Of a stretch of DNA of 64,000 nt, positions 12,079 to 59,052 are shown piece by piece. A program made the translations under genes and the position numbers. The notes under the pieces are model-generated. The model ran no database searches and had not been told where the DNA came from. It saw nothing but the letters and a program-made list of their open reading frames with translations. The DNA is taken from positions 1,536,001 to 1,600,000 of the forward strand of contig CBDCYI010000005.1 in the NCBI GenBank assembly GCA_965224085.1, read 5' to 3'. Position 1 is the stretch's first letter; every line of letters begins with the position of its first letter. This stretch comes from Candidatus Marinacidobacterales bacterium. Its GTDB lineage: Bacteria; Acidobacteriota; Vicinamibacteria; Marinacidobacterales; SMYC01.

Positions 12079-13460
12079 CGATGTTGGTCGTGGGGGAATG
12101 AGCGCGGAGCAGGTTCTCCGGGCGTTGTTGGTCAAGCAGCTGAATCAGTTCACCTATCGGGAGCTGGCGTTTCACTTGGCAGACTCTCGAAGCTATCGGA
12201 CGTTTTGCCAGCTCGGCATCATAGAGCCGAGCCCGTCGAAGTCGACCCTAGCAGCAAACATCAAAGCCGTGAAGTTCGAAACGCTGGAGAAAATCAACCG
12301 AGAGTTGGTGAGTGTTGCCGAGAAGACCGCGATCGAAAAAGGAAGAAAAGTACGAGTGGACTGCACGGTAGTGGAGTCGAATATTCATTCTCCTACGGAC
12401 TCCGAGCTTCTTTATGACTGCGTCCGAGTTCTCACTCGCCTCATGTGCCGAACTCGCGAACTGCTGGGTACAGTAGTGGTCTTCGGCAATCGAACGCGTC
12501 GAGCGAAGAGACGTCGACTGGGAGTTCTAAACGCGAAGGATAAGGAACAAAGGCGTCGCGTTCTATCGAGATCTACTGAAGGTGTCGGAAGAAACCTATC
12601 GCTCCGCTCAACGCGTTGCAGACCAGTTGGACGAGTCCGGCTTGACCGAGCCGGTGAAGCGAGCGAGTGCGGAGAAGATCGCCGCGGATTTTAAGCACTT
12701 TCTCGTCCTCACCGAAAAAGTCATCAACCAAACTCGGCGTAGAGTGATTGATGAAGAGCGTGTGCCTGCGGAGGAAAAGGTCGTTTCGATCTTCGAAGAA
12801 CACACCGACATTATTCGCAAAGACCGGCGCGAGACTCTCTACGGTCACAAGGTGTGTTTGACTGGTGGCTCGTCCTCGATGATTTTGGATTGCGTGATCT
12901 TGGATGGGAATCCGTCCGATTCAACTCTCGCGGAAACCATGATCGACCGTCAAGTCGAACTCTACGAACGGGCCCCGCGCCAGGTTGCCTACGATGGCGC
13001 GTTTTCTTCAAAGGCAAACTTGGAAGCCATCAAAGGCAAGGGAGTTGAAGATGTTGCCTTTACCAAGGCTCACTTCGCGGTGACCGATATGGTCAAGAGT
13101 TCCTGGGTCTATCAACGCCTACGGCGATTTCGCTGCGGAATCGAAGGCGTCATTTCGTTCTTGAAACGAGTCTTTGGTCTCGACCGATGCACATGGCGCT
13201 CATTGCCTTCTTTCAAATCCTACGTATGGAGTTCCATCATCACCTGCAACCTGTTGGTAATGGCAAGGCACCTATTACGATAATAATGATTACTCTTACT
13301 GCGTTTATAGCCATGGATTGCTGACGATTCGCCTCTCGTTTCGTCCAAGATTTTCATTCGCTTCCGAGCCTACGAGGTGCCGGCTGAAAACGTATAATAC
13401 CCACATCTTCGATAGGCCTCTCGTACACCACAAGTTATGGTGTTTCTGGACAGGAACTAG
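12076..13460 (+). mobile_element. ISNCY/IS5-like element, 5'-truncated, frameshifted DDE transposase
   Basis: GRGGMSAEQV, RVDCTVVESNIHSPTDS (frame 1); frameshift near 12560-12580; YGHK, AYDGAF, RCGIEGVISFLKR (frame 2, to 13283); ends at ..GGACAGGAACTAG 13460; lower GC. Confidence 0.85.
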
Positions 13461-13651
13461 CTAGAGCCTGTTGCAAAACGTAACCGCTTTCACCGTTGGT
13501 TTCAATCCGCGTCCAATCGGGCAGCTGACAGATCTGTGATTTGCCGGCGCCAAACGCGCCTGGATCGATCCGCAAGAATTTTCCCAACTATTTTGTATTT
13601 GGTCGTTTTTTTCTTGACTTGTAGCCTAAGGGATGATATTTATTAGGCGTT

Positions 13652-15085
13652 ATAGGGACCGTTACCAGGCAGTCCGCCCTCTTCTACGTCAACTTCTCCA
13701 AACAGGCGTCGCTCATCAAGGATGATCTACTCGAACCCGTCGACACGCTCCTCGAGGACCCCGAGCTGATAGAACTGACGAGAGAATCGCTCGCTGGTCG
13801 TTTCCCGCTCTCACCGCGTACCGGCCGGGTGAGTATCGCGCCTGACCGCTTGCTCCGCAGCTGTGTACTCAAGCACATCAAAGGATGGTCCTTCCGAGTC
13901 CTCGAGCGGGAGATCCGTTCTAGCCTCGTGTATCGGCGCTTCACTCGCTTCGACGACGATTCGATTCCCAACTACTCCACATTCAGTCGCAACTTTTCCC
14001 TACTCGGTGATGCGTTCGTAGAGAAAATCCATGCCCGTGTGGTCGCTCAGGCTCGAGACGAAAAGGTGGCTACGGGACGCAAGTTACGCACGGATACGAC
14101 GGTAGTGGAGAGCAACATCCATTACCCCACAGATAGCTCACTGCTTGCCGATGGCATCCGGGTGCTCACCCGTAGTCTGAAGTGTATTGCAAAGGCTTGT
14201 GCTCAAGGTGCGCTCAAGGTGGTGGACCACAGCCGATCAACGAAAAACAGGCAGCTTGAGATCGACCGCGCCAGCAAGTCGTTCACCGAATCGAGCCAAG
14301 TCAAGTTCAAGCAAAGTTATCGCAAGCTCATGGGCACGGCGCGCAGCGTGGTCCGGCAAGCCGACGAGGTTATTCAGTCGCTCAAGAGCGGAAAGCTTCC
14401 GGTCGTGGGTTCGCTGGTGAGCATCATAAGCAATCAGAGCCAACTCGAACATTATCTGCCACTGTGCAAAAAGGTGTTAGCTCAGACAAAGGCCCGTGTT
14501 TTAGGGGGCCATCGTCACCATCCGGACAAGATCGTCAGCCTGTTCGAGGAGCATACGGCCGTGATCCGAAAAGGCAAAACATGGAAGCCGACCGAGTTTG
14601 GACGACTCGTGCGAATTGATGAGGTGGAGAACGGCATTGTTAGCCACTACGAAGTTGCCGCAGGCAATCCGGCGGACCAAACTCAGTGGATGCCCGCGCT
14701 GGAGCAACACAAAAAACAGTTCGCTCGTGCGCCGGAGATGGCGACCGCTGACCGCGGATTCTTTTCGGCAGACAATGAACGCAAGGCCATAGATCTCGGT
14801 GTAAAGAAAGTGGTGTTGCCGGCTCGAGGACGACCCTCGAAAAAACGAGCCAAGGTTCAAAAAAAGCGCTGGTTCCGTCGAGCCCTCAAGTGGCGCGGGG
14901 GCGTCGAGTCCCGCATCAGCACCCTCAAGCACCGCTTCGCTATGCTTCGCGCCACCTACAAGGGCGACCGAGGATTCAAGCGTTACGTCGGGTGGTGCGT
15001 TATCAGCCAAAACCTCATATCGATCGCTCGAGTCAAGCGGCGAAGAAAGGACAGCGAAAATGCCGAACCCTTCATTCCGATCCAC
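13652..15085 (+). CDS. DDE transposase (ISNCY/IS5-like); frame open from ~13640, stop lost, reads through to 15493
   Basis: RTDTTVVESNIHYPTDSSLL, TEFGR, TADRGF, RGGVESRISTLK. Confidence 0.85.
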
Positions 15086-15405
15086 GTAAACGTCGGGACC
15101 AGCTCCTACAACAGATTCAACAATATGCGCGAAGGGCGATCTTCGGCACACCCTCCGAAACCTATCGTACCTGCGGTACGCCCACTTGTCGGTGCCACGG
15201 GCCCGGGCCAAAGCATGGCCCTCACCTCTATATCAATTTTCGTGGCAAGCACGGCAAGACTACCGGCTACTATGTGCCCCAAGCCGCACACAAGCGTATC
15301 CGCGAAGGCGTCGCCGCATGGCAGAGCTTGCAGGATTGTCTGCGAGAACTCGCGGACATCAACAAGCAAAATACGCTCGACCGTGCCCGACAGGCGCGTT
15401 CCTAA
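15060..15405 (+). pseudogene. IS accessory zinc-ribbon protein (DUF6788-like), frameshift near 15085
   Basis: RTCGTPTCRCHGPGPKHGPHLY; ATG 15060 is out of frame with the body. Confidence 0.65.
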
Positions 15406-15490
15406 CAAGCAGTACAACCAACGGCCTCACTCCTGTGCTCAAACAAATGAACGCCTTGACGCTAAACGGGCTTTTGCAACAGCCTCTAGC

Positions 15491-15560
15491 TAGCAGGGTG
15501 CTGAAAAACTCATCTGCACCCTGCTGCTCGCAACGCTCCCCCGGCCCGACAGGGCCGACA
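15491..15560 (+). repeat. small hairpin element, copy 1 (MITE/REP-like)
   Basis: AGCAGGGTGC-loop-GCACCCTGCT plus GGCCC..GGGCC hairpin; 54/69 identical to the reverse complement of 18348-18416 by manual alignment. Confidence 0.7.
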
Positions 15561-22000: not shown

Positions 22001-22837
22001 CTAATATCTCCAGCTGAGCGTGTTGGCTAGTCGCTCGCCGCCTTTCAGGGTGACGGTCGCCGTCAAGACAACGGCGCCTTGTTCGTGGGCGGGCGTCCAT
22101 CGTCCCCCAACAGAATAGAGCACGGCGCTTTCACGCGCGCCGACATGGGCGATATCGAGGGGCACGCCGCCGCCCGTTTTCTTGCCCGCGAAGGACCAGT
22201 CGAGACGCAGGCTCGTCGCGTCCAAAGCACGGTTGCTGCGATTTACGAGACGGACCTCGAGCTCGTAACTTTGGCCTAGCGCGACTTTGTCCGGGCTCAG
22301 CTCGACCAGAAGATGGGCGGGGCTGGCAGGAAGCGCGGTGGCCCGGTGAACCTTTTCGTCTTCGACGACGAAGCCGGGGACTTCGCTCCATGCCGCCGTC
22401 GGGTCTTCGAATCTTGTTTCGCCGAGCCGAAACCGCTTCTCCGGGCTTTCGATGCGTTGGCTCGACTCGGACGGGGACCGCTCCTCGATAGCGTCGAGCA
22501 GATCCTCACGTTGTGTAGCGAGCTCGGACCAAAGAGCCTGATTGGCCTCGCGAAGCGCCGCGAGCTCTTTTTTGGGGTCGCGGATGGAGGCGATCTTGCG
22601 GTTGGCTTCCTTAATGGCCGTGAGATCCCGGGTGGCGGCGTTTCGAATCGCCGTCAGCTCTCGCTGCTGCCGAGTAAGGTCGAGCGACAGCGCTCGCGTC
22701 CTCGTGTGCGAGTCTTCGTTCACCGCCGAAACGTCGCGCTGCAGCTGCCACATCTGATCGCCGAGTCGCCAGCCGTAAAAACCGACCAACCCCACGGAAA
22801 CGAGCGCGCTCAGACCGATCACAGACAGCGCAGCCAC
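22001..22837 (-). CDS. hypothetical membrane-anchored coiled-coil protein with beta-rich C-terminus
   Basis: N-terminal TM, heptad-rich middle; frame remains open upstream, so start is uncertain. Confidence 0.6.
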   Translation of the reverse strand: MAALSVIGLSALVSVGLVGFYGWRLGDQMWQLQRDVSAVNEDSHTRTRALSLDLTRQQRELTAIRNAATRDLTAIKEANRKIASIRDPKKELAALREANQALWSELATQREDLLDAIEERSPSESSQRIESPEKRFRLGETRFEDPTAAWSEVPGFVVEDEKVHRATALPASPAHLLVELSPDKVALGQSYELEVRLVNRSNRALDATSLRLDWSFAGKKTGGGVPLDIAHVGARESAVLYSVGGRWTPAHEQGAVVLTATVTLKGGERLANTLSWRY

Positions 22838-23214
22838 GAGATAGACGTGATTCCGCCGCAGCTGCTCCCTAAGCTCCTCGAGTTCTTGCTCTAGTTTGCT
22901 CAGAATATGGCTCCGGGTTCGGTTCGGTCTAAAGGGCTTAGGGGTATTGTGGAAGTTTCAGTTTCTGGTTGCAAGCTTCTGTCGGAAGGTCCGCCTTGCT
23001 GCTGCCGGCTACCTGATACCCGGCGCTCCTGTCTCTAGATATGGAACGTCGTCGAGCGCTGCCCGAAGCTCGGCCCCGTCGGCCGCCCGAAGTATCGCGA
23101 CCGCACCATTCGTCGAACCAGAGCGGTAGCTCGCGACGAGCGCGAGATAATCGCTGGGCGTGAGCGCCAGAAGATACGCCCTTTCATGGGAGAACCGACT
23201 CGGGCAGCTTCACG

Positions 23215-23379
23215 CTAGTCCCCTGGAACAGAGGTTCGTGGCCTAAGGCTCGAGGTCATTTTGTGGGCTGGCAAGGCGTGACGACGAAGTCATATTGGGA
23301 TATTTCGAGGAGAAACAACGCAGCCAGCGCGCAAAAGAGCCCGAGATTTAGGTTACGAATCTCTGTTCCAGGGGACTAG
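23215..23379. mobile_element. 165-bp MITE with 25-bp terminal inverted repeats ending in CTAG
   Basis: CTAGTCCCCTGGAACAGAGGTTCGT ... ACGAATCTCTGTTCCAGGGGACTAG (1 mismatch); imperfect pairing continues inward. Confidence 0.85.
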
Positions 23380-24099
23380 CTCATCGAGATATTGCGGGAA
23401 CATCTTCCGCCACGTGACCCAGTCGTGGTGCCATTGCTTGCCCCAAGAATCGACACGGTTCGGAATGCCTTTCGCGCCCAGGAGTTTCGCCATCCCCCAA
23501 GACTCCTCGATGTCTTCGGCCTCACCTTCCCCGGAAGCCAAAAGCACGAAACGCGACCTGAGCTTCTCCAGAAGCTCTCCTTCGAGCCCAGGAAGGAAAT
23601 GAAGCGGCGAGGAGAAATGCCAGTCCTCGGTAGCCTCGGCCCGCAAGAAGCGGTCGAGATTGTAGGTCCCGCTCAAACACACGGCATGGGTGAACGCGTC
23701 CGGGTAGCGGGCCAAAGCCGCTAATGCGTTGAACGCGCCAATGGAAGATCCCGCAGTGATGATACCGATATCATTCGACTGACAGTCTTTCCGGATCGCG
23801 GGGACGAGCTCGTGATACACAAACTGCTCAAACTGATTCTGAACCCGCATGCGGTACGCCGGCGTTCCCTCTTCCATCAACAGCGACTGCCCCGCAACGC
23901 TTTCGCAGGAAAAAATCTTCACACGACCAGCTTCAAGAAGAGGTCCTATAGCGTCTATGACGTGGAAGCGTTCGATCTCCTCGGCATCACCGCCCGCTGT
24001 CGGGAACAGGAGCACCGGCGTTCCCATCTCGCCCCAGCGCACAACACCCACGTCGGTACCGAGGCGCTGTGAGTGCCAGACGGTCTTCTGCTTCGTCAC
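23353..24099 (-). CDS. alpha/beta-hydrolase esterase
   Basis: LLFPTAGG, G-S-S-I-G nucleophile elbow, HDW.TW. Confidence 0.85.
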   Translation of the reverse strand: MTKQKTVWHSQRLGTDVGVVRWGEMGTPVLLFPTAGGDAEEIERFHVIDAIGPLLEAGRVKIFSCESVAGQSLLMEEGTPAYRMRVQNQFEQFVYHELVPAIRKDCQSNDIGIITAGSSIGAFNALAALARYPDAFTHAVCLSGTYNLDRFLRAEATEDWHFSSPLHFLPGLEGELLEKLRSRFVLLASGEGEAEDIEESWGMAKLLGAKGIPNRVDSWGKQWHHDWVTWRKMFPQYLDELVPWNRDS

Positions 24100-25266
24100 C
24101 TATTCGTAAACCATCCAAAGCGGTCCGGGAAAGAGCCATGAAAGCCCCTCGCGCAGGCGATCCCGCCAATTCTCCCAGTTGTGCCCATCCCGAGCTTCGA
24201 CATAGCGGACCTCCATTCCCGTCTTTTGCAGGAACGGAACGATCGATCGATTCTCGTAGATATTCGCTTCATAGGTCCCGCAGCTGATGAAGACTTTCTC
24301 GCTCACGGATTTAGGCTCCGCGCGATAGGCGTTCATGAACTCGACCACAGGATCGAAGGCCGGACCACGCTGATGCTCGCCGATGTCGCTGAACGCGAAC
24401 GAGCCCGATTGCAGCAGAAGACGTCCGTAAAAACCGGGATACCGCCAGGCTGTCGAGAGCGAAGCTACCGCGCCGAAGCTAGCGCCCATGAGTCCGCGAT
24501 AGCGCGGCTGGTTGAGAAGCGGAAGCTCCGATTCGAGAAACGGGACGAGCTCCTCCGTGAGGTAGCGAGCGTGGGGTTGATGGTTCGCGTATTCGGCCAA
24601 GCGTTTTTCCGGATGGGTGAGCGCCACGATCATGCCCGGGATCTCGAGCCGATAAATCAAGTTGTCGAGCACCGTCTTCATGCCCGAATATCTCAGATAT
24701 TCCGGTCCATCATGGACGAGCAGCAACGGATAGCGCCGCGTTGTCCGGAATCGCGCCGGCAAATAGAGCATCACTTTTCTCGCACTACCGAGCGCCGGGC
24801 TCTCGAAAACCATTTCTTTGAGCGTACCCGGGCGCGCCTCCGGGTCTGGCTGGGCCCATTCCGGTATCTCGTATCCCGCTGTATGGCACACCGAGTTCTC
24901 GCCGAACGGATCCGAGGCTTTGTGACTGTTCAGCGGATCGAGCAGCCATTCCATTTTTCCGTGATGAGTTCTCTGGAGCTTGTACTCGATACGTGAGTCC
25001 GGAGGGAGTTCCATGACGAGATACCACAGGTCGGTTCCGACGACGTGCTTGAACTGCTGGGACGAAGGAAGACCGTAGATCCAATGTCCTAGATAGACGG
25101 CTTCCGCAGGTCCTCGGTAGACGAACGTCGTGTAGGAGCCTTCGACGAGGGGAAACTCGTGCGACTCAATGAACGCGTCGATCTCCCCGCGCGTCGGTTT
25201 CTTGTCAGAGACGTCGTGGATCGCGAGCTCCCGCTCGGTGATATCCTCTCGCTCTCGCGTTACCAC
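24100..25266 (-). CDS. Fes-like esterase with N-terminal Ig/CBM48-like domain
   Basis: N-terminal TFVY..LWYL..RIEYK..DPLN..NSV; VYLP-type motif, HDG, GASFG, GHNWENW. Confidence 0.85.
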   Translation of the reverse strand: MVTREREDITERELAIHDVSDKKPTRGEIDAFIESHEFPLVEGSYTTFVYRGPAEAVYLGHWIYGLPSSQQFKHVVGTDLWYLVMELPPDSRIEYKLQRTHHGKMEWLLDPLNSHKASDPFGENSVCHTAGYEIPEWAQPDPEARPGTLKEMVFESPALGSARKVMLYLPARFRTTRRYPLLLVHDGPEYLRYSGMKTVLDNLIYRLEIPGMIVALTHPEKRLAEYANHQPHARYLTEELVPFLESELPLLNQPRYRGLMGASFGAVASLSTAWRYPGFYGRLLLQSGSFAFSDIGEHQRGPAFDPVVEFMNAYRAEPKSVSEKVFISCGTYEANIYENRSIVPFLQKTGMEVRYVEARDGHNWENWRDRLREGLSWLFPGPLWMVYE

Positions 25267-26204
25267 GATGTCACTTTCTCCACGGTGCCGTTGGGGCTGA
25301 GACGAAGCACTTCTTTTTTCGCCGAGAACGTCTCGCCATCGAACGCGATGCAGTCGCCGTCCCCCATGACGACGCAATAATCGGGAAGAAACCGGCTCGC
25401 GAACGAGGCGACCCCATCCTCCTCACTCAAATCGAGACGTTTTTTGCCATCGGGAAGCGCCACGAGTCGCGGGCAGAGACCGAGCCCCTCCTCCAAGACC
25501 TCGGCATTGCCTGGGCCTTGCGGGGGATGGTCGTGAAAGAGGACCACCCGCTCAGTGAGCACCATAGCGCCCGCCGACCACGCGACGATCGTCTTGCCTT
25601 GCGCAAGCTCTTGCATCCCGAACAGACGAAGCCGGTTGAGAAGAACCGCAACATGTCCTCCGGTGATCACTAGCGCAGGCGCGCCTTTGAGAATCGTGCG
25701 TATCTCCTCGCGCTCGCGTGCGATCGCTTCCCGCTCGAGAGGCTTCCACGTCGTCTCGAACTCTCCTCGAATATCGAGAATGCGCTTCAAATGCCAGACG
25801 TCGAGCTCTCGCAGTTGCTCGATCGCATGTTCTTGTTCCGGACGCAGTAGCTCTTCGTGCCCTTCGGCCTTTAGAAGGCGCCTAACGCTCTCGACGACAT
25901 ACGAAAGGCGCAAGTCGTAAAGCCCTTCGATCTCCCGCAGCTTGCGCTGCATCTCACGATGAGCCTCACGGAATTTCGGGTCGTCCCGGAATACCCGATC
26001 GGCGCGGCGGTAGAGTTCGAGATCCAGTGAGCGGCCGCCGAGATACCCGTCGAGCTCTTCGTCCTCGCCTTCACGCTCTTGCCAACCGGCAGTCACGACG
26101 GCGATCGGGCCGTCGGGTAGATCGAGCTTCTCGTAGAGTTCGCCTAGAGTCGGCCTGTGGTATTGCGGCCCCAAGAGCCAGACCGTGCGGTTTTTGGATG
26201 TCAC
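25260..26204 (-). CDS. peptidase S51-like (PepE/cyanophycinase, class I GATase fold) protein
   Basis: VTAGWQE, ITGGH, AWSAGAM nucleophile, GLGL. Confidence 0.7.
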   Translation of the reverse strand: MTSKNRTVWLLGPQYHRPTLGELYEKLDLPDGPIAVVTAGWQEREGEDEELDGYLGGRSLDLELYRRADRVFRDDPKFREAHREMQRKLREIEGLYDLRLSYVVESVRRLLKAEGHEELLRPEQEHAIEQLRELDVWHLKRILDIRGEFETTWKPLEREAIAREREEIRTILKGAPALVITGGHVAVLLNRLRLFGMQELAQGKTIVAWSAGAMVLTERVVLFHDHPPQGPGNAEVLEEGLGLCPRLVALPDGKKRLDLSEEDGVASFASRFLPDYCVVMGDGDCIAFDGETFSAKKEVLRLSPNGTVEKVTSW

Positions 26205-27424
26205 TCTGCTCGGACCTTCACGGTTTCGCCGACGCGGTTCAACATTTGGCGGAGCTCATCGAATTTCGGATGGCGCATGCGGATCCACGCATTCGCCATA
26301 TAGCCGGCCTCGACGGGCTGGGTCGGTTCTCCCGCACGCGGAAGATGATAGTCGATGATCCACTGACCGAGCTCGCTCTCGATCGAGGCGATGCCCTCGT
26401 AGCCGATGATCCTTCCATCTCGTTCGGGACGCAGCGTGATGATACCGGCCGCGTAGGCACGCGACGCCTTCTGGCTCGTGCTCTTGGCTGTGACGGCGAC
26501 GGCCCACTCGCGATAGAGGTCCATCTCGTTGCCGACACTATAGAGATCCCAGGCGCCGACACCTGGCGGCCGGCAGCCGATCTCCGAGAACTTGAGACCC
26601 TTTGGCCCGAAAAACCACTCCATGTGGGTCGACGAGGTTTCGATCCCGAGCAGCGAGATGACTTTCTTGCCCATCTCCCGCACTTGCTTGTAGTCAGGGG
26701 CGGTATCCACTTGATTCGTCGCGATGAACTGCGGCGAGATCCAACGCTCGCGCATCGCTTCGAGAACATTCGGGTAGTAGTGTGAGATGAAGTCGTGAGC
26801 CACTTCACCATCGATGGTGATGGTGTCGTAAAAGCCCTCATGGCCCTCGATGAACTCCTCGACCGCCACGCTCGCGCCTTGATCCACTCCCATCTCGTGG
26901 AGCGCAGCGTCGAGCGCGTCGTCGTTATCGGCACGGGCGGTGCCGGCCGCACCCGCCCCGCTCGGCGGTTTAATGATAACGGGATAGCCCACGGCCGCAA
27001 CGAAATCGCGAATTTCCGATCGGGAGCTGCTGCCCATCGATGGCGCGCAAGCAATGCCACCCTCGCGAAGGACTTGTTTCATCGCGGGCTTGTCGCGGCA
27101 CAAGAAGGCTGTCTTCGTGGACGTCCCCGCGATAGCGCACGCCTCCCGCACATGGGCGGCAGGCAAGATATGCGCCTCGATCGTCGCTTCGAGCCGATCG
27201 ATGGGGAGCTTCGATTGAAGCCAGCGAACCTTCTCAGAAACAGCGCCCTCGTCCACGACCGACGGCACTTGCTCGTAGTGGGTCAACCAGCGCCGGAGCT
27301 CGTCATCGAGCGCTTCTTTCGGGCGCTCGCCAACGCCGGTAACGGTTGCGCCGACTTCGTGGAGGGCTCGGGCGAACTCCCGCTGGTTCTTGGGAAAGCA
27401 AGGCTCGATAAGAACGACATGCAC
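26201..27424 (-). CDS. ATP-grasp ligase (L-amino-acid-ligase-like) A
   Basis: RDKPAMK, IKPPSGAGA, EEFIEGHE, HMEWF, EIGCRPPG. Confidence 0.9.
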   Translation of the reverse strand: MHVVLIEPCFPKNQREFARALHEVGATVTGVGERPKEALDDELRRWLTHYEQVPSVVDEGAVSEKVRWLQSKLPIDRLEATIEAHILPAAHVREACAIAGTSTKTAFLCRDKPAMKQVLREGGIACAPSMGSSSRSEIRDFVAAVGYPVIIKPPSGAGAAGTARADNDDALDAALHEMGVDQGASVAVEEFIEGHEGFYDTITIDGEVAHDFISHYYPNVLEAMRERWISPQFIATNQVDTAPDYKQVREMGKKVISLLGIETSSTHMEWFFGPKGLKFSEIGCRPPGVGAWDLYSVGNEMDLYREWAVAVTAKSTSQKASRAYAAGIITLRPERDGRIIGYEGIASIESELGQWIIDYHLPRAGEPTQPVEAGYMANAWIRMRHPKFDELRQMLNRVGETVKVRAE

Positions 27425-27528
27425 GGCGGCGCCCCACTACAGAGTAGAAGAAGCGCCAATCTATCAGGAACTAGTGACGTTTGGCGACAACCCGCGCGAC
27501 GCTTTATTCCCCGAGCTCTTGAAGCACT

Positions 27529-28944
27529 CTATGGGCCCGAGAGTCGCCGATAGATCGCTACATAGGTCTCAGCCTGGCGTTCCCAGGAAAAATCCTGCGC
27601 CATCCCGTTCGCGACGAGCCGGCGCCAGGACGGGCGGTCACGGTAGAGCTCGAGTGCAGCACCGAGGGCCCAGCGGACACCGTCGGGCTTGTAGTGCTCG
27701 AACACGATTCCCGTGCCCTCGCCGGTAGCGGGATCGAAGAGCTTCACGCTATCAGCAAGACCGCCCGTCTTGCGAACGATAGGAACCGTCCCATATTTGA
27801 GGCTGTACATCTGGTTGAGACCACAGGGCTCGTAGCGGGAAGGCATGAGAAACATGTCCGCCGCCGCCTCGATCCAATGCGCGAGCGGGTTGTGAAAGCC
27901 ACGATAGAAACAGAGGCGATCGGGGTAGTCTCTTTGGAGCGAGGCAAAAAACTCTTCGTATGGCGCCTCGCCGGTGCCGAGGACGACGAGTGACCAGGAC
28001 TCGCGTGACAAGAGCTCGGGAAGAGTCTCGACGAGCAAGTCGAGGCCTTTTTGCGCGGACAAGCGCGTCACCATGCCGACGAGCGGCACATCCTCCGGTT
28101 GCGAAAGGCTCAACTCCTTCAAAAGAGCTTTTTTGTTCTGGTTCTTTCCGTCGAGATTCTTTTCCGTGTAGCGGAACGGAATGAGCGTGTCATTCGCGGG
28201 GCTCCACGTTTCGTAGTCCACGCCGTTCAGAATCCCGACGAGCGCAGCGCGTCGACGTCGCAGGAGCGCATCGAGACCGTATCCTTGCTCGGGGGTCTGG
28301 ATCTCCTCGGCATATGTCGGGCTCACGGTGGAAAGATGATCCGCGTGCACGAGCCCGGTCTTGAGGAAATTGACGATACCGTCCTTTGAATCCCGGGCGT
28401 CGAACGACGACGGGCCTTCGATGCCAATGGCTTTCACGATTTCCGCGAAAAAAACACCTTGGTAGGCGAGGTTGTGTATCGTGAAGAGCGTCTTCGCCTT
28501 GTCAAAGAGGCTCGATGCGGCCCTCTTCAAAAGCAGGGGCACGAGCGCCGTTTGCCAATCGTTCAGATGAAAAATCTCCGGCGCAAAGGCCAAATGGTGG
28601 CAGGCCTCGAGCACCGCACGGCAAAAAAACAAGAAGCGGAACGGCTCGTCCTCGTCGTTCGTATATATGGCCTCTCGTGCGAAAAATCGAGGAGCATCAA
28701 TGAAGTAGACCGGCACGCTGGATCGCGGGAGCATCCCCTTTCTGAGCGCGAAGCCCTCCGTGCTTACTTCGACGGGTTCGAGTCCGTGCGCGGCGCCATC
28801 GATGCTGCCATAGAGCGGCACGAAAACACGCACGTCGTGTCCGAGCTTCCCGAGCGTTCGGGGAAGCGCCTCAGCCACATCGGCGAGGCCGCCTGTCTTC
28901 GCGAAGGGCGTGAGCTCCGACGCGAGAAAAGCGATCCGGAGCAT
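27529..28944 (-). CDS. glgA: glycogen synthase (GT5)
   Basis: KTGGLADV, HLNDWQT, TIHNLAYQG, PSRYEPCGLNQMYS, TGGLADS. Confidence 0.93.
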   Translation of the reverse strand: MLRIAFLASELTPFAKTGGLADVAEALPRTLGKLGHDVRVFVPLYGSIDGAAHGLEPVEVSTEGFALRKGMLPRSSVPVYFIDAPRFFAREAIYTNDEDEPFRFLFFCRAVLEACHHLAFAPEIFHLNDWQTALVPLLLKRAASSLFDKAKTLFTIHNLAYQGVFFAEIVKAIGIEGPSSFDARDSKDGIVNFLKTGLVHADHLSTVSPTYAEEIQTPEQGYGLDALLRRRRAALVGILNGVDYETWSPANDTLIPFRYTEKNLDGKNQNKKALLKELSLSQPEDVPLVGMVTRLSAQKGLDLLVETLPELLSRESWSLVVLGTGEAPYEEFFASLQRDYPDRLCFYRGFHNPLAHWIEAAADMFLMPSRYEPCGLNQMYSLKYGTVPIVRKTGGLADSVKLFDPATGEGTGIVFEHYKPDGVRWALGAALELYRDRPSWRRLVANGMAQDFSWERQAETYVAIYRRLSGP

Positions 28945-28969
28945 GAGAGGGATTATAATCCCTCCCATG
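28942..28969. promoter_or_regulatory. palindromic bidirectional (leaderless) promoter
   Basis: CATGAGAGGGATTATAATCCCTCCCATG: TATAAT on both strands, each 7 nt before an ATG. Confidence 0.7.
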
Positions 28970-30190
28970 ACGAACGTGGTTTTCGTCGCGCCCTATTTCG
29001 CCGAAACGACGCTTCGCTTCATAAGCGCTGCGGCGGGTCTTCACAACGTACGACTCGGCCTCATCAGCCAGGATCCCGAAGAGAAGCTCCCCGAGAGTTT
29101 GCGTAAACAGCTGGCGGGCCACTACCGCGTCGAAGCGGGTCTTTCGCGAAGCGCCATCGAGAAGGCCACGCGCGCGATGAAGCGCACCTTCGGCTCGGTC
29201 GATCGTTTGCTCGGAACGCTCGAGCAGCTTCAAGTGCCCCTTGGTCAAATTCGCGACGAGCTCGGTATCTCCGGCATGGGCGCCGAAGCCGCGCGGAATT
29301 TTCGTGACAAAGCGCTCATGAAAACGCTGCTCGCACGCCATGGGCTCCCTTGCGCACGCCATCGCCTCGTGCGCGACACGAGAGAGGCATTCGCCTTCGT
29401 GCGAGAGGTCGGCTTCCCGCTCGTCATAAAGCCGCCCGCGGGCGCAGGGGCGCAGTCGACATTTCGCCTCGATGACGATCGGGCGCTCTCGGAATGTCTC
29501 GCTTCGATGCCGCCCTCGGATACGAGACCAACGCTCCTCGAAGAGTTCATCGTCGGGGAGGAACATTCTTTCGACAGCGTGGTGCTCGCCGGAGAGCTCA
29601 CGTGGTACTCGATCAACGATTACTACCCCGCACCCATCGAAGTCTTGCGCCATCCTTGGATTCAGTGGAGCGTGGTCTCGCCCATCGAGCTCGACCATCC
29701 GCGTTATTCGGCCATCCGGAAGGTCGCGGGCCCAGCTCTATCCGTTCTCGGTCTCGAGAACGGCCTGAGCCACATGGAGTGGTTCGCGCGCACAGACGGA
29801 AGCGTTGCGATCTCGGAGGTGGGCGCCCGACCTCCCGGTGCGCAGTTCGCGACGCTTCTTTCTTATGCCCATGATTTTGATTTCTACAGCGCTTGGGCGC
29901 GGCTCATGGTCGAGGACGTCTTCGAGCCGCCGCCACGGCGATACGCCGTGGGTGCGGCCTATTTGCGTGGTCAGGGCACGGGCGCACGCGTTACCGGCAT
30001 TCGCGGGCTCGAACAAGCGCAGCGCGACGTCGGCGATCTCGTCGCCGAGGTCAAGCTTCCGGAGCTAGGCCAATCGCCGTCGGGAACTTACGAAGGCGAG
30101 GGCTTTGTCATCCTGCGTCACGAAGACACCGATGTCGTGAAGCGAGGCATCAAACGTGTCCTCGAGCAAGTCTACGTGCAGCTGGCCTAA
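28967..30190 (+). CDS. ATP-grasp ligase B
   Basis: RDKALMK, IKPPAGAGA, EEFIVGEE, HMEWF, EVGARPPG. Confidence 0.9.
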   Translation: MTNVVFVAPYFAETTLRFISAAAGLHNVRLGLISQDPEEKLPESLRKQLAGHYRVEAGLSRSAIEKATRAMKRTFGSVDRLLGTLEQLQVPLGQIRDELGISGMGAEAARNFRDKALMKTLLARHGLPCARHRLVRDTREAFAFVREVGFPLVIKPPAGAGAQSTFRLDDDRALSECLASMPPSDTRPTLLEEFIVGEEHSFDSVVLAGELTWYSINDYYPAPIEVLRHPWIQWSVVSPIELDHPRYSAIRKVAGPALSVLGLENGLSHMEWFARTDGSVAISEVGARPPGAQFATLLSYAHDFDFYSAWARLMVEDVFEPPPRRYAVGAAYLRGQGTGARVTGIRGLEQAQRDVGDLVAEVKLPELGQSPSGTYEGEGFVILRHEDTDVVKRGIKRVLEQVYVQLA

Positions 30191-30207
30191 GCCCCAAAGA
30201 GGGTCCT

Positions 30208-31440
30208 ATGAACGTCCTCATGATGAGTCCGGGTTTTCCGGCGGAGATGCCTTTTTTCACGCGCGGGCTCGCGCGCGTTGGCGCAAACGCCATCGGAATA
30301 GGTGATCAAGCGCAATCGGCGCTCCCCGAGCTCGCGCGCGATAGCCTCAGCGCTTACTTCCAAATCCCGTCTTTCACCGACACTGACGAAGACGCGATCT
30401 TTCGGCAAGTCGAGGCCATCCACCAAAAAGCGCGACTCGACCGCATCGAATGCCTCTGGGAGCCTTTCATGCTCCTCGCGGCGAAGCTTCGGGAGCATCT
30501 CGGCATAGCGGGTATGACGGTCGAAGAGACGATCCCGTTCCGTGACAAAGAGATCATGAAAAAGCGGCTCGACGACGCAGGTATCCGTACGCCGCGACAT
30601 GCGAGCGTCACCACCGTCGAGGGCTGCCGGAAGGCCGCGGCCGCGATCGGTTTTCCGGAAAGGTCGGTCGTCGTCAAGCCCATCGCGGGGGCCGGAGCGG
30701 CCGACACCTATCACGTACGAAGCGCCGACGAGCTCGAAGCCGTGCTCCCAGCGCTCGGCCACGTGGCCGAAGTGAGCGTCGAGGAGTTCATTGACGGCGA
30801 CGACTATACCTACGAGACGATTTGCATCGACGGCAAGATCGAGCATTTCAGCATCTCTTTTTATCGACCTCGAGCGCTTCAAGCACGGACTCATGAGTGG
30901 ATAAGCCCGCAAACCGTCGTTGTGCGCCTTGTTCAGGACGAAGCGCTTCGACCCGGCTGCAAGATGGGCGAGGCGGTCGTAAAAGCATTGAACTTTAAGA
31001 CGGGCTTTACGCACATGGAGTGGTTCAAAACCCCTTCCGGTGAAGCCGTGTTCGGCGAGATCGCCGCTCGGCCACCGGGTGCGCACCTCGTCGACCTCAT
31101 CAACTACGCCTCTGATATCGATGTTTTCACAGGCTGGGCCGAGGCCATTTGCCACGGCCGCTTCACTCAAACCGTCGATCGCAAATACAACGCCGCCTGG
31201 ATCTACAAACGCGCCGAGGGCGAGGGTGTCATCCACAAGATCGACGGCCTCGCGACTTTGATGGCCGAGCTCGGCGAGCACGTGATGTTATTGGACCTCC
31301 TTCCGATAGGGGCGCCCCGCCGCAACTGGAAACAAACCCTCGTTTCAGACGGGATGATCATCGTGCGCCACCCCAACCTCGAGCGCACGTTGGAGATCGC
31401 CGATCGCTTCGCAACCGAGCTCAGAATGTATGCGCGCTGA
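30208..31440 (+). CDS. ATP-grasp ligase C
   Basis: RDKEIMK, VKPIAGAGA, EEFIDG, HMEWF, EIAARPPG. Confidence 0.9.
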   Translation: MNVLMMSPGFPAEMPFFTRGLARVGANAIGIGDQAQSALPELARDSLSAYFQIPSFTDTDEDAIFRQVEAIHQKARLDRIECLWEPFMLLAAKLREHLGIAGMTVEETIPFRDKEIMKKRLDDAGIRTPRHASVTTVEGCRKAAAAIGFPERSVVVKPIAGAGAADTYHVRSADELEAVLPALGHVAEVSVEEFIDGDDYTYETICIDGKIEHFSISFYRPRALQARTHEWISPQTVVVRLVQDEALRPGCKMGEAVVKALNFKTGFTHMEWFKTPSGEAVFGEIAARPPGAHLVDLINYASDIDVFTGWAEAICHGRFTQTVDRKYNAAWIYKRAEGEGVIHKIDGLATLMAELGEHVMLLDLLPIGAPRRNWKQTLVSDGMIIVRHPNLERTLEIADRFATELRMYAR

Positions 31441-31446
31441 CGCTTG

Positions 31447-32700
31447 TCACTTGGAAAAGGCTCGTCGGATCTCTTCGGCGAGGATCGCGATACCCTTTCG
31501 GACGATGTCGTCGTCTTGGGAATAACTCACTCGCAAACATTCCTGTTTGTGACGCCACAGCTCGTCGAGGCCGGGAAAGAAGTAGTGCCCGGGAACGACG
31601 AGAACGCCGCGCTTTTTGAGACGTTCGTAAAGGACGGTTGACGTGACCGGCATGTTCTCGAGCCAGAGCCAGAAAAAGAACGTGCCCTCGGGCTTGTGCA
31701 CGCGATAGGGCAAGCCCTTCATCGCTTCGCGAAGCCAACCGAGCGCAAGTTGCGACTTGCGCTCGTAGAACGGCCGGATTTTTTTTCGAGAGAGCTCGAG
31801 CACATCTCCGCTCGCCACGAGATCGCGGGCCAAGACCGCCCCGAAGCTTCCAGGTGCGAGGCTCACGATGGCGTTCATCGCAGAGACGGCTCTGATTATC
31901 ATCTCATTTGCGATGACGATCCCGGTGCGAACGCCAGGAAGGCCGAGCTTCGAGAGACTCATCGACAAGATGATGTTCTCGTTCCAGATCGGCCCGGCAT
32001 CCGTGAAGACGATGTTGGGAAACGGTGGACCGTAGGCGTTGTCGATGATGAGAGGGATCTCGTTTTTCGCCGCGAGCGCGCTCAAGCGCAGAAGCTCATT
32101 TTCGGTGAGCACGTTCGAGGTCGGGTTCGTGGGCCGCGAAACACAGAGCGCGGCGATGTCCTCGCTCACGCGCACGGCGTCGAAATCGACGTGATACTTG
32201 AACAAATCGTCTTCCAGAAGCTCGATCTCTGGCCTTTGTGAAACAAACAAATCCCGGGCAATGCCCGTATCCGCATAACCGATATATTCGGGTGTGAGCG
32301 GCAGGAGGATTTTCCGGTGGCGGCCGTCGTCGGACATACCGCCGAGCAAATTGAACAAAAAGAAAAACGACGTTTGGCTCCCCGTCGTCAGCGCAACGTT
32401 CTCTGGGCCAACCTCCCAACCGTAATGTTTCCTCAGAAGCGCGGCCATCGCTTCGATGAAGGGGCGATTTCCCGCCGGCGCGTCGTAGCTGCTAAGCAGC
32501 TTTTCTATCTCGTCCGAAACGGACAGCATGCTTTGCAATCGCTCCGTGAAGATTGCCTCGACTTCCGGAATACGCCCGGGGTTGCCGCCGCCGAGCATCA
32601 GGATATCGTCGCCCGCGGCAAGCGCATCGCCGAGGTCGTTCATCAACTGCAGGATGCCGGATTCCTCGGTGAACTTGCCGCCGAGCCTCGAGAGCTTCAT
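31447..32700 (-). CDS. avtA: valine--pyruvate transaminase
   Basis: SGILQLMNDL, LGGGNP, PEYIGY, SRPTNPT, IDNAYG, SLSKLGLPGVRTG. Confidence 0.9.
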   Translation of the reverse strand: MKLSRLGGKFTEESGILQLMNDLGDALAAGDDILMLGGGNPGRIPEVEAIFTERLQSMLSVSDEIEKLLSSYDAPAGNRPFIEAMAALLRKHYGWEVGPENVALTTGSQTSFFFLFNLLGGMSDDGRHRKILLPLTPEYIGYADTGIARDLFVSQRPEIELLEDDLFKYHVDFDAVRVSEDIAALCVSRPTNPTSNVLTENELLRLSALAAKNEIPLIIDNAYGPPFPNIVFTDAGPIWNENIILSMSLSKLGLPGVRTGIVIANEMIIRAVSAMNAIVSLAPGSFGAVLARDLVASGDVLELSRKKIRPFYERKSQLALGWLREAMKGLPYRVHKPEGTFFFWLWLENMPVTSTVLYERLKKRGVLVVPGHYFFPGLDELWRHKQECLRVSYSQDDDIVRKGIAILAEEIRRAFSK

Positions 32701-32727
32701 CACTTCGCCGATCGACGGTCGGGCTGC

Positions 32728-32970
32728 CTAGGCTTTCTTCAGACGCGCCACGGCGGCAAGAAGCACCACGGCGCCTACGGTCGCCGTTACGAGCGAGCCG
32801 ATCGTGCCGCTCGCGGACAAACCCAGGAGGCCGAACAGTAACCCGCCGAGGACCGCTCCGATCACGCCGACGATGATGTTCCCCACGAGGCCGAAGCCCT
32901 TGCCCTTCATGATCTGACCGGCGAGCCAGCCAGCAATCAATCCGATAGCCAAGAAACTGATGAGTCCCAC
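32728..32970 (-). CDS. GlsB/YeaQ/YmgE family membrane protein
   Basis: IGLIAGWLAG..NIIVGVIGAVLGG..ATVGAVVLL. Confidence 0.9.
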   Translation of the reverse strand: MGLISFLAIGLIAGWLAGQIMKGKGFGLVGNIIVGVIGAVLGGLLFGLLGLSASGTIGSLVTATVGAVVLLAAVARLKKA

Positions 32971-33005
32971 GTGACACCTCCGGGGTGTACTAATATCAGA
33001 CTGTC

Positions 33006-35339
33006 ATGGTCTGGGTGAAGCGTTTTGCCGCGCTCGGCGCTATCGTCGTCCTGCTCGGAGGTTTTTTGGCGTGCCACGCACTACGTTCTAGCCTTGCGCA
33101 GCTCGACGGCGAGGCGATCTTGCCTGGCCTCTCGGAGGCTGCCACCGTCGAGCGGGACGCGCTCGGTGTCGCGACGATCAAAGGCGAGAGCCGCGCGGAC
33201 GTCGCACGAGCCCTGGGCTTCGTTCATGCCCAAGAACGCTTTTTCCAGATGGACCTCTTGAGACGTCAGGCGGCCGGTGAGCTCGCGGCGCTTTTTGGTG
33301 AAGCTGCGCTGCCGCTCGATCGACGCCGCCGTCTCCATCGGATGCGCATGCGCGCGCAGAAGTGCGTTTCGCTATCGCACGCGGACGACCATGGGATCTT
33401 GACCGCTTATACGGACGGTGTGAACGCAGGACTCGCCGCGCTCGAGGCGCCGCCGTTCGAATATTTATTGCTGCGACAAACGCCCGAGCTGTGGCGTTTC
33501 GAGGACTCCGTCCTCGTGGTCGCGGCGATGTTTTTCGTTTTGAACGACGCCGGGGGCAGTCACGAAGCGGCTCAAGGCTTGATCCACGACGTCCTTCCAC
33601 TGCAGCTCGCGGAGTTTCTCTCTCCCCTCGGGACGGATTGGGATGCGCCCGTCGTCGGAGATGCCATCCCTACGCCACCCATCCCGTCTCCGAATTCCGC
33701 GGGCTCCTCGGCGCCCACAACTGTTCGGCACGCGCGCGGTGGGTGCGCTCAATGCGGGGAGCTTTGGCGCAGCGATGTCGGGAGCAACAACTGGGTCCTC
33801 GCCGGGACACGCACGGCCAGCGGCCGCGGTCTTCTAGCGAGCGATATGCACCTCGCGCATTCCGTACCGAATATCTGGTTCCGTGCGATGTTGAGCTGGG
33901 ACGGCCATCGCGTTGTCGGCGTCACGCTTCCGGGAACACCGTTCATGGTGGCAGGCAGCAATACGCACATTGCTTGGGGATTCACGAACAGCAACGGCGA
34001 TTGGAGCGATCTCGTAGAGATCGAGGTCGATCCCGAGGATCCCACACGCTACCGAACCCCGGACGGATGGAAGTCGTTCGCGATCCACGAGGAGCGTATC
34101 GAAGTGAGCGGCGCCGAGGCGGAGGAGGTGCTCGAGATTCGCGAAACCGTCTGGGGACCGGTCGTGGATGAAGATCATCGCGGACGCCTGCGCGCCATTC
34201 GCTGGATTGCTCATGAAGCGGATGCGGTCACTATGGGCGTGGGCGCCCTCGAGACGGCCACGACACTCGACGACGCACTCACCATCGCACAGCAAAGCGG
34301 GCTGCCCCCCCAAAACTTTGTCGGCACCGATACGTCGGGAGCGATTGCCTGGACGATCGCCGGCCGCATCCCGGCACGCTTCGGCTTCGATGGACGACGA
34401 CCTTCGTCCTGGGCCGACGGCACACGTGGGTGGGACGGATGGCTCGCGCCGGAAGACTACCCCGTGATCCGCGACCCCGAATCGGGAGTGATTTGGACGG
34501 CCAATGCCCGCGTGATCGATGGGGAGATGCTCGCGAAGATTGGCGACGGCGGTTATGCATTCGGTGCCCGCGCCCGTCAAATTCGCGACGCTTTGGCCGC
34601 CATCGACGACGCCAGCGAGCAGGACATGCTCAACGTTCAGCTGGATGACCGCGCGCTCTTCATGGACGTTTGGCGGAAATATTTCGTTGCGTGGGTTCCG
34701 GCATACATGCGCGAGGCCATCGAGAACGGCTGGACCGGCCATGCGTCCGTCGATGCGTCGGGCTATCGCATCGTGCGAGAGCTGAGGCTCGCGATCTTCG
34801 AGGAGGTCTTCTCGACGCTCACCGCGGAAGCGAGCGAGGCGGACGAGCGTTTCAGCGTCTGGTCGCTACGGCAGTGGGACGGCCCGCTCTTTAAATTGGT
34901 CTCGAAAAAACCCAGCCACCTTGTGCCCCGCGAATACGCGAGCTGGGACGCATGGATGATGGACATCGTGGAGCGCACGGTCGCCTCGTGGGAAGAGCCT
35001 CTCGCCTCGCGGCGCTGGGGCGAAATCAACCAGACCGCCGTGAAACACCCGCTAAGCCGCACCGTTCCGTTCTTATCACGCTGGCTCGACATGCCGTCTC
35101 GCCCGATTCCCGGTGACAGCAACGTACCGCGCGCGCAAGGGGCGACCCACGGTGTCTCCGAGCGGCTCGTCGTCTCGCCGGGCCAAGAGGAGAAGGGCTT
35201 GTTCCACATGCCCGGCGGCCAGAGCGGGCATCCCCTGTCACCGTTTTATGGCGCGGGCCACGAGGACTGGGAGCAAGGCCGCCCGACACTGCTACTTCCC
35301 GGAGCAGCTTTGTATTCGTTGACGCTGAAGGCCAGTTAA
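33006..35339 (+). CDS. penicillin acylase family (S45) Ntn hydrolase
   Basis: GFVHAQERFFQMD, GSNNW, DMHL, TANAR, PGGQSGHP. Confidence 0.92.
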   Translation: MVWVKRFAALGAIVVLLGGFLACHALRSSLAQLDGEAILPGLSEAATVERDALGVATIKGESRADVARALGFVHAQERFFQMDLLRRQAAGELAALFGEAALPLDRRRRLHRMRMRAQKCVSLSHADDHGILTAYTDGVNAGLAALEAPPFEYLLLRQTPELWRFEDSVLVVAAMFFVLNDAGGSHEAAQGLIHDVLPLQLAEFLSPLGTDWDAPVVGDAIPTPPIPSPNSAGSSAPTTVRHARGGCAQCGELWRSDVGSNNWVLAGTRTASGRGLLASDMHLAHSVPNIWFRAMLSWDGHRVVGVTLPGTPFMVAGSNTHIAWGFTNSNGDWSDLVEIEVDPEDPTRYRTPDGWKSFAIHEERIEVSGAEAEEVLEIRETVWGPVVDEDHRGRLRAIRWIAHEADAVTMGVGALETATTLDDALTIAQQSGLPPQNFVGTDTSGAIAWTIAGRIPARFGFDGRRPSSWADGTRGWDGWLAPEDYPVIRDPESGVIWTANARVIDGEMLAKIGDGGYAFGARARQIRDALAAIDDASEQDMLNVQLDDRALFMDVWRKYFVAWVPAYMREAIENGWTGHASVDASGYRIVRELRLAIFEEVFSTLTAEASEADERFSVWSLRQWDGPLFKLVSKKPSHLVPREYASWDAWMMDIVERTVASWEEPLASRRWGEINQTAVKHPLSRTVPFLSRWLDMPSRPIPGDSNVPRAQGATHGVSERLVVSPGQEEKGLFHMPGGQSGHPLSPFYGAGHEDWEQGRPTLLLPGAALYSLTLKAS

Positions 35340-59046: not shown

Positions 59047-59052
59047 GATGAG

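Follow-up and report, generated by a model that had tools for sequence, protein, structure and literature searches.

We analyzed a 64,000-nucleotide stretch of DNA (the window) from the 6.87-Mb assembly of an acidobacterium, Candidatus Marinacidobacterales bacterium (genome G000). At positions 23353-31440 of the window, seven genes are arranged as two arms that diverge from each other. The minus-strand arm encodes a glycogen synthase (GlgA), an ATP-grasp ligase (A), a hydrolase that is similar to S51 peptidases (S51-like), and two putative esterases (Est1 and Est2). The plus-strand arm encodes two more ATP-grasp ligases (B and C). As we describe below, these genes belong to a larger module that recurs in diverse bacteria, and the products of the module probably act in the cytoplasm to make and break the same compound or compounds, perhaps together with a glucan. 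The features of the locus are as follows.

23353..24099, minus strand: Est2, 248 amino acids; PF00756 (E = 6.5e-11), with the motif GSSIG; the terminal gene of the minus-strand operon
24100..25263, minus strand: Est1, 387 amino acids from a GTG start at 25263 (the open reading frame extends to 25377); PF00756 (E = 1.1e-22), with the motif GASFG
25260..26204, minus strand: S51-like hydrolase, 314 amino acids; PF03575 (26.0 bits, with a cut-off of 23.9), with the motif AWSAGAM
26201..27424, minus strand: ATP-grasp ligase A, 407 amino acids; matches to ATP-grasp families in Pfam
27529..28944, minus strand: GlgA paralog, with a likely ATG start at 28944 (MLRIAF...; the open reading frame extends to 28968); TIGR02095
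28949..28962, no strand: the perfect 14-nucleotide palindrome GGGATTATAATCCC, between the divergent starts of glgA and B
28967..30190, plus strand: ATP-grasp ligase B, 407 amino acids from a likely ATG start at 28967 (the open reading frame begins at 28910)
30208..31440, plus strand: ATP-grasp ligase C, 410 amino acids from a likely ATG start at 30208 (the open reading frame begins at 29893)

The genes for A and the S51-like protein overlap by 4 nucleotides, as do those for the S51-like protein and Est1, while Est1 and Est2 abut. The gaps between genes are 104 nucleotides for glgA and A, and 17 nucleotides for B and C. A preliminary description of this DNA had reported seven genes in two arms, with many of them overlapping or abutting, and our analysis of open reading frames and protein families confirms this layout. 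The preliminary description also noted that its author knew of no characterized function for this architecture, and our searches agree. None of the module's proteins reached an equivalog in NCBIfam, and full-text searches of the literature found no paper about this gene set; earlier comparative genomics of amidoligases may hold a prediction.

We searched a collection with one genome per species for relatives of A, which gave at least 586 matching stretches, and we compared the neighborhoods of the 80 best. We used the window's proteins as tblastn queries and counted only those hits that spanned 50% or more of the query. This criterion missed some copies, and the denominators below are set by the lengths of the contigs. 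These 80 loci are from soil, sediment, and marine bacteria and span 10 named phyla (the taxon labels are the submitters' own): 27 are from Myxococcota, 15 from Gemmatimonadota, 9 from Actinomycetota, 7 from Acidobacteriota, 7 from Dormibacterota, 5 from Planctomycetota, 2 from Eiseniibacteriota, 2 from Pseudomonadota, and 1 each from Chloroflexota and Krumholzibacteriota, and another 4 are unassigned. The recurrent order is [C,B] [glgA] A-S51-Est1-X-Est2, where X is an additional protein that we describe below. Among the loci with at least 5.5 kb of sequence downstream of A, we found the S51-like gene in 48/60, Est1 in 53/60, X in 45/60, and Est2 in 47/60. Similarly, where 4.5 kb or more of the sequence on the upstream side was available, B was found in 45/64 loci and C in 42/64. 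Because the gene set recurs beside A in most of the 80 loci, and in 10 named phyla, the arrangement is not due to chance. The ligases, the S51-like protein, and both esterases form a conserved unit, as had been proposed. In some relatives of our bacterium, the module is decaying: G002 and G003 have only fragments of C; at the locus in G002 (L011), C, glgA, and Est2 are all below half-length coverage; and G010 and G013 retain only short fragments of A. Among the myxobacteria, metagenome-assembled genomes titled Archangium gephyra and Sorangium cellulosum have A along with the linked glgA, but their loci (L085 and L036) yielded no further genes of the module. Actinoplanes digitatis is another candidate carrier.

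X is a fourth ATP-grasp protein, of about 415 amino acids, with conserved motifs of its own. X did not match any family in Pfam above the cut-off. When its profile was compared to that of A, it was identified as ATP-grasp (probability 95%, E = 3.5e-8), and its best solved matches are D-Ala-D-Ala ligases (Ddl). In the window's genome, X is not at the locus. Instead, it is on contig C4 (1809528-1810736, or L092:9517-10752), where it is 57% identical to the copy from the Eiseniibacteriota locus L017. Its neighbors on C4 are a DDE transposase, which is directly beside it (L092:8181-9425), and an M20-like peptidase (L092:10930-12516).

Other genes of the module came to light by clustering all of the open reading frames from the 80 loci against each other. 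This clustering was contaminated by long antisense reading frames from GC-rich genomes, and it served simply to direct us to GCS2-CBS, GlgB, GH57, and AstE-like proteins, each of which was then checked with Pfam and tblastn. A carboxylate-amine ligase of 660 amino acids (GCS2-CBS) lies behind Est2 in 17 of the 80 loci, which represent at least six phyla. In 7 loci, GCS2-CBS is followed by an AstE/AspA-like deacylase. Also, 5 of the Dormibacterota loci have a plain GCS2 ligase between X and C. The window's genome does encode a homolog of GCS2-CBS (46% identical), which is on contig C4 as well (593471-595345; L103). The genes in the preliminary description are all present, but the locus itself is a trimmed copy of the larger module, and X and GCS2-CBS have moved out in this lineage. 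Another variation is that at L017 (2462-8446), a complete peptide ABC transporter of the Opp/Dpp type (two permeases, a binding protein, and two ATPases) lies between B and glgA.

The three ligases at the locus had been described as paralogs, and this was correct; the motifs that had been quoted are present as well. Across the full length of A, its identity is 32% with B and 35% with C, and all three keep the motifs RDK..MK, KP, EEF, H-MEW, and E..RPPG (in 42-81 orthologs each; the catalytic motifs are conserved in 49 orthologs of B and in 42 of C). PF02222 matches A, B, and C above its cut-off, and C also has an ATPgrasp_N domain. Among proteins with solved structures, A is most similar to two L-amino-acid ligases, 4wd3 (E = 1.2e-14) and 3vot (E = 1.8e-8). 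Judging by their motifs and their nearest solved relatives, A, B, and C appear to be ATP-grasp ligases of the L-amino-acid ligase type. Each of the three has its own conserved surface, which suggests that they use different substrates or carry out different steps.

A is the most conserved member of the module. It is 61-68% identical between phyla, and the 120 best of about 8,000 scored relatives are all at least 67% identical. The tree of A has 12 changes of phylum label, as compared to a minimum of 9, so it follows the phyla. This implies that the high identity of A reflects constraint (strong purifying selection) and not recent spread.

The S51-like protein has the S51 fold: besides the match to PF03575, all 20 of the Foldseek matches to its predicted structure with E ≤ 0.001 are S51 peptidases (cyanophycinase, pseudo-CphB, or PepE; TMt of 0.47-0.63). 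(Our claims about structure rest on two predicted models, for this protein and for Est1.) The model has a predicted local distance difference test (pLDDT) score of 92.0 and includes a helical insertion of about 110 residues, with three long helices at 64-173. G182-G183 are invariant in this family, and H184, S210 (within AWSAGAM), and H224 are nearly invariant. S51 peptidases have a Ser-His-Glu catalytic triad. In the model, S210 is at the strand-helix (nucleophile) elbow, and H224 is only 14 residues after it; both are at least 90% conserved. A consensus histidine near position 252 is replaced by aspartate in the window's protein. Among 1.84 billion proteins, we found 397 representatives of the S51-like family (E ≤ 1e-30), most of which have around 310 amino acids.

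In a large protein collection, we found 12 full-length natural fusions of the S51-like protein with Est1. These fusions argue that the amide-cutting and ester-cutting activities share one substrate. We also found fusions that contain A, but we discarded P0126, P0133, P0137, P0138, and P0142, as these are single sequences with a truncated A and could be artifacts of frameshifts. In another single sequence, P0136 (1055 amino acids), a full-length A is apparently joined to an Est1-like esterase (32% identical) and to the N-terminal half of X. This triple fusion may be real, or it may be an artifact of assembly or of a frameshift.

Est1 is predicted to comprise an N-terminal beta-sandwich followed by an alpha/beta hydrolase domain (AlphaFold model, pLDDT 92.1). 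Its S262 (in GASFG) and H361 are invariant. The best match in the PDB for the profile of Est1 is Fes (2b20, E = 1.3e-21), while esterases that combine CBM48 with a CE1 domain matched the profile in the catalytic domain only. When we searched with the predicted structure of Est1 instead (Foldseek), feruloyl esterases of the CBM48-CE1 type aligned across the full length of Est1, with template modeling (TM) scores of 0.57-0.60 and a top E value of 2.9e-24. Neither esterase reaches the 222-bit cut-off of the Fes equivalog NF007758 (94.8 bits for Est1 and 18.9 bits for Est2). Est2 matches solved esterases weakly, and its GxSxG serine (S119) and H225 are invariant across 28 orthologs. Since the nucleophile is kept in Est1, in Est2, and in the S51-like protein, all three hydrolases look active, which fits the cycle of synthesis and hydrolysis that had been suggested.

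The module-linked GlgA scores 534.1 bits against TIGR02095, well above the cut-off of 328.45 bits. The preliminary description identified this glycogen synthase correctly but overlooked that it is a second, dedicated paralog. The window's genome has two GlgAs above the family's cut-off, which are 41% identical to each other, and neither is in a glg operon. (The glgC-like and glgB genes are on other contigs.) Two GlgAs are also present in 4 of 5 other genomes with the module. Among the 74 loci that we could assess, 29 have glgA within 1.2 kb of A, and of the 48 loci that extend for 7 kb or more to both sides, 22 have a gene from the glgA family within 10 kb. This seems to be far above what chance would give for a gene that is present once or twice per genome. 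Other glycogen-related genes are beside the module less often: glgB is next to C in 8 loci, and GH57 is present in 4 loci.

The linked GlgAs have a history of their own. In a tree of 45 GlgA sequences, the 33 module-linked copies, which are from 8 named phyla, form one clade (Shimodaira-Hasegawa-like approximate likelihood ratio test, 99). This clade excludes all 5 of the unlinked copies as well as 7 copies from Gemmatimonadota that are sited with glgB and GH57. We also examined 31 genomes from the window's order, of which 15 have an intact A. GlgA of the linked type (60-100% identity) is present in 14 of the 15 genomes with intact A and in 0 of the 16 others (or 0 of 15 without the unpublished genome G027), which we report as a pattern and not as a statistic. 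Three of those 16 genomes have only a GlgA that is 43% identical. The 33 linked copies keep all 62 of the alignment columns that 12 other GlgAs conserve (in KTGGL, EPCGL, etc.), so the linked GlgA is probably a functional ADP-glucose glucan synthase. Just 4 positions set the linked clade apart.

What might the module do? The explanation that we prefer, to which we give somewhat less than an even chance, is a cytoplasmic cycle that builds and breaks an amino-acid compound with amide and ester bonds, which is grafted onto an alpha-glucan or deposited with it. As for the location, no signal peptides are evident when the proteins' N-termini are read by eye, and a cytoplasmic site is therefore probable. 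The ligases (A, B, C, X, and, in many lineages, GCS2-CBS) would each use ATP to convert a carboxyl group to an acyl-phosphate and would thereby link amino acids, which are their presumed substrates. The product would bear ester bonds as well as amide bonds, and the ligases would presumably form the esters too. (X's branch of the ATP-grasp proteins includes VanA-type ligases, which form depsipeptides.) The S51-like protein, and the AstE-like deacylase if present, would then cleave the amide bonds, and Est1 and Est2 would cleave the ester bonds. Each ligase may even adjoin the hydrolase that undoes its bond: by adjacency, A would be paired with the S51-like protein, X with the esterases on either side of it, and GCS2-CBS with the AstE-like protein.

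The dedicated and co-inherited GlgA, and GlgB in some phyla, point to alpha-glucan as the acceptor or the partner. In our preferred explanation, the GlgA paralog (with GlgB in some phyla) would supply alpha-1,4-glucan for the module, and amino acids or short peptides would most likely be attached to glycogen by ester bonds or else be deposited along with it. The module would thus maintain a regulated reserve of carbon plus nitrogen. Reserve compounds typically have their synthetic and degradative enzymes encoded together in an operon. A more specific proposal, which we regard as doubtful, is that ten or more bacterial phyla share a storage glucan that had not been recognized before, a "peptido-glycogen". 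The ATP-grasp ligases would graft amino acids or short peptides onto alpha-1,4-glucan through ester bonds, and the dedicated esterases and the S51-like protein would strip them off. If so, then the peptido-glycogen might be a carbon-nitrogen reserve, or the modification might be a reversible cycle that controls access to the glycogen, analogous to the phosphorylation of starch.

Several of our results weigh against a strict tie to a glucan. The preliminary description viewed the N-terminal domain of Est1 as Ig- or CBM48-like and putatively glucan-binding, and we could not substantiate this. Enterochelin_N matched 26/26 orthologs of Est1 (best E = 2.2e-7, although the match to the window's Est1 is weak), while CBM_48 matched just 1/26, weakly (E = 0.044), and the best global match to the fold of Est1 is Fes (TM scores of 0.67-0.71). 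The substrate of Fes is a serine trilactone and not a polysaccharide. Sequence searches did not find a recognizable carbohydrate-binding domain in the other proteins of the module, either. The claim that the cluster is linked to glg genes held up in part: the 29 of 74 loci and the dedicated clade of GlgA support it, but there are loci without glgA, and a nearby glgA was found in 0 of 7 assessable loci from Dormibacterota and in 0 of 7 from Actinomycetota. Furthermore, 2 of 5 genomes with an unlinked module have no hit to TIGR02095 at E ≤ 1e-30 (these genomes may be incomplete). The evolutionary evidence has limits as well. The tree of GlgA is from a quick search and has just the 5 unlinked copies, and because the relatives in the window's order are not independent, 14/15 versus 0/16 overstates the evidence. 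Finally, in 3 of the 5 genomes of the genus, the linked glgA is broken (it is in pieces with stop codons in G002, at L011, and in G004) or split (in G003), while A, the S51-like gene, and Est1 persist. This implies that the core of the module can outlive glgA.

If there is no covalent link to a glucan, then the product might be a free peptide or depsipeptide in the cytoplasm, perhaps with aspartate, that serves as a nitrogen reserve polymer or an osmolyte, and GlgA would merely be co-regulated, which would let the cell store carbon and nitrogen at the same time. This is the main rival to our preferred explanation; we consider it unlikely, but it deserves to be taken seriously. It would account for the glgA-free modules in several phyla, for the 2 of 5 such genomes without a hit to GlgA (family GT5), and for the lack of a carbohydrate-binding domain by sequence. 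The S51-like fold resembles cyanophycinase and PepE, the substrates of S51 peptidases contain aspartate, and the window's genome lacks a cyanophycin synthetase (the best score is 99 bits, versus 850 bits required). The CBS domains of the accessory ligase suggest control by the energy state of the cell, and a peptide transporter of the Opp/Dpp type is inserted in one locus, both of which would suit a free peptide. On the other hand, mere co-regulation would leave two facts unexplained: GlgA of the linked type is restricted to genomes with the module (14/15 versus 0/16), and it forms its own clade across 8 named phyla. And the two conserved esterases require a substrate with an ester bond, which a pure peptide would not offer. 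Another idea is that the ligases add a tail to a target protein, such as the dedicated GlgA, in the manner of RimK or tubulin-tyrosine ligase, and that the hydrolases erase it. Comparative genomics has reportedly placed ATP-grasp or GCS2 ligases with AstE-like or S51-like hydrolases in predicted peptide-tagging systems, and both the AstE-like gene after GCS2-CBS (in 7 loci) and the tight coupling of the genes would be consistent with this. However, A, B, and C are closest to ligases that act on free amino acids, and they score just 17-32 bits against RimK-family models, whose cut-off is 143 bits. Also, the only conserved gene for a target would be glgA, which is missing from many loci, and esterases would be unexpected as erasers of peptide tails, so we think that protein modification is improbable.

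It is more improbable still that the module makes a secreted natural product, whether an antibiotic from L-amino-acid ligases or a siderophore-like ester that is processed by a relative of Fes, with glgA being irrelevant. The weak matches of the A-type ligases do include BacD, RizA, and DdaF, which form dipeptide antibiotics, and Est1 does have the architecture of Fes. But none of the genes that recur in the 80 loci are for export, receptors, resistance, or the synthesis of catechols or hydroxamates, and such a product would be destroyed by the three or four hydrolases that its own operon encodes. The 61-68% identity of A between phyla, and a tree that follows the phyla, are unlike secondary metabolism, and the linkage to glgA is specific. 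We also set aside graspetides and other ribosomally synthesized and post-translationally modified peptides: the genes abut, which leaves no room for a precursor gene (no search was aimed at precursors), and the ligases are similar to L-amino-acid ligases. The last alternative is that these genes are unrelated neighbors and do not form a system. Each of the proteins is from a large and common superfamily, yet the same order is found in 10 named phyla, natural fusions exist, and GlgA is inherited along with the module, so this is very unlikely.

The module has similarities to several known systems. As in cyanophycin metabolism (CphA with CphB or CphE), non-ribosomal joining by ATP-grasp enzymes is encoded beside a hydrolase with the S51 fold, and the logic of building and breaking a reserve might be the same. 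But the module is not a cyanophycin system, as CphA is missing. Against TIGR02068 (cut-off 850 bits), the three paralogous ligases reach just 30.9-35.7 bits, and the best hit in the entire genome, with 99.3 bits, covers only positions 476-850 of the model. Furthermore, CphA is a single polypeptide with ATP-grasp and Mur-ligase-like parts, while the module splits ligation across four or five enzymes. The helical insertion of about 110 residues in the S51-like protein, the two esterases, and the GlgA paralog also distinguish the module from cyanophycin metabolism. The L-amino-acid ligases (RizA, 4wd3; BL00235, 3vot; and BacD) share the ATP-grasp motifs, and also ATPgrasp_N in the case of C. This similarity is distant, and no NCBIfam equivalog was reached. 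Unlike those enzymes, the module has three co-conserved paralogs and a fourth ATP-grasp protein, along with hydrolases and glycogen genes, and its ligases are far more conserved than is usual for the ligases that make antibiotics.

Est1 shares the two-domain architecture of Fes and IroD (Enterochelin_N with PF00756), but it is only about 20% identical to Fes and is below the equivalog's cut-off, and genes for the synthesis or uptake of siderophores do not accompany it in the 80 loci. Est1 is also similar to the CBM48-CE1 esterases that act on feruloyl groups or acetyl-xylan, as both have a beta-sandwich and an alpha/beta hydrolase that align over the full length. CE1 esterases strip acyl esters from polysaccharides, which is the activity that would be needed if amino acids are grafted onto a glucan. 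They differ from Est1 in that the N-terminal domain of Est1 is Enterochelin_N by sequence, and Est1 appears to be cytoplasmic.

Mycobacteria make methylglucose lipopolysaccharide (MGLP) with a dedicated paralog of a glucosyltransferase, and MGLP is acylated by acyl-CoA transferases, with fatty acids as the substituents. In contrast, the module uses ATP-grasp ligases, and none of the genes for MGLP were found here. Nevertheless, MGLP is a precedent for an acylated alpha-glucan inside the cell: it is intracellular and partly esterified (PMC4555173). Overall, the locus seems to extend a known theme, in which ATP-grasp ligases and hydrolases build and break a compound, with a set of genes for which we found no description.

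If the product is indeed a novel reserve polymer, or glycogen with modifications, then it would be a new class of bacterial storage compound. It would help to explain how oligotrophs without cyanophycin bank nitrogen, and it would extend the chemistry of ATP-grasp enzymes to esters of sugars or to depsipeptide esters. Should the product prove to be a free peptide, a function would still be assigned to four or five ligases and three or four hydrolases that have none at present, and the clade of linked GlgAs would represent a rare recruitment of glycogen synthase to a specialized pathway.

We also considered how the module might be regulated. The palindrome GGGATTATAATCCC occupies the spacer of 22 nucleotides between glgA and B, and TATAAT can be read from it on either strand. 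It has one match in the window (0.09 expected), and elsewhere it was found solely at L011, which is from the same genus. It is possible that GGGATTATAATCCC is a promoter or an operator that is shared by glgA and B. The palindrome also explains why the long open reading frames of glgA and B both begin with similar "GIIIP" peptides. A scan of positions 22500-33200 did not find a sigma-70-like promoter, and terminator-like sites in that region are not above the level in shuffled sequence. A search of the window with Rfam did not identify any family of regulatory RNAs. None of the 7 proteins of the module matched an anti-phage family in PADLOC at E ≤ 0.001, and we dropped the idea of a defense system for that reason.

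Two genes flank the module on the side of ligase C. One encodes a valine-pyruvate transaminase (AvtA-like; NF006964, 622 bits; 31447-32703), and the other encodes an acylase of the penicillin amidase family (33006-35339). Both were rejected as members of the module because they are present only in the close relatives L011 and L012. Farther away, positions 9060-11288 (minus strand) encode a protein of 742 amino acids with a pyridine-nucleotide-disulfide oxidoreductase domain and AIRS and AIRS_C domains, a pairing that is known from proteins of the selenophosphate synthetase type. The window also contains mobile elements. There are two genes for DDE transposases at 12582-15493, where the G+C content falls to 0.53, and at 57799-59913, an IS91-type (Y2) transposase lies beside a phage-type integrase, at a peak in the GC skew.

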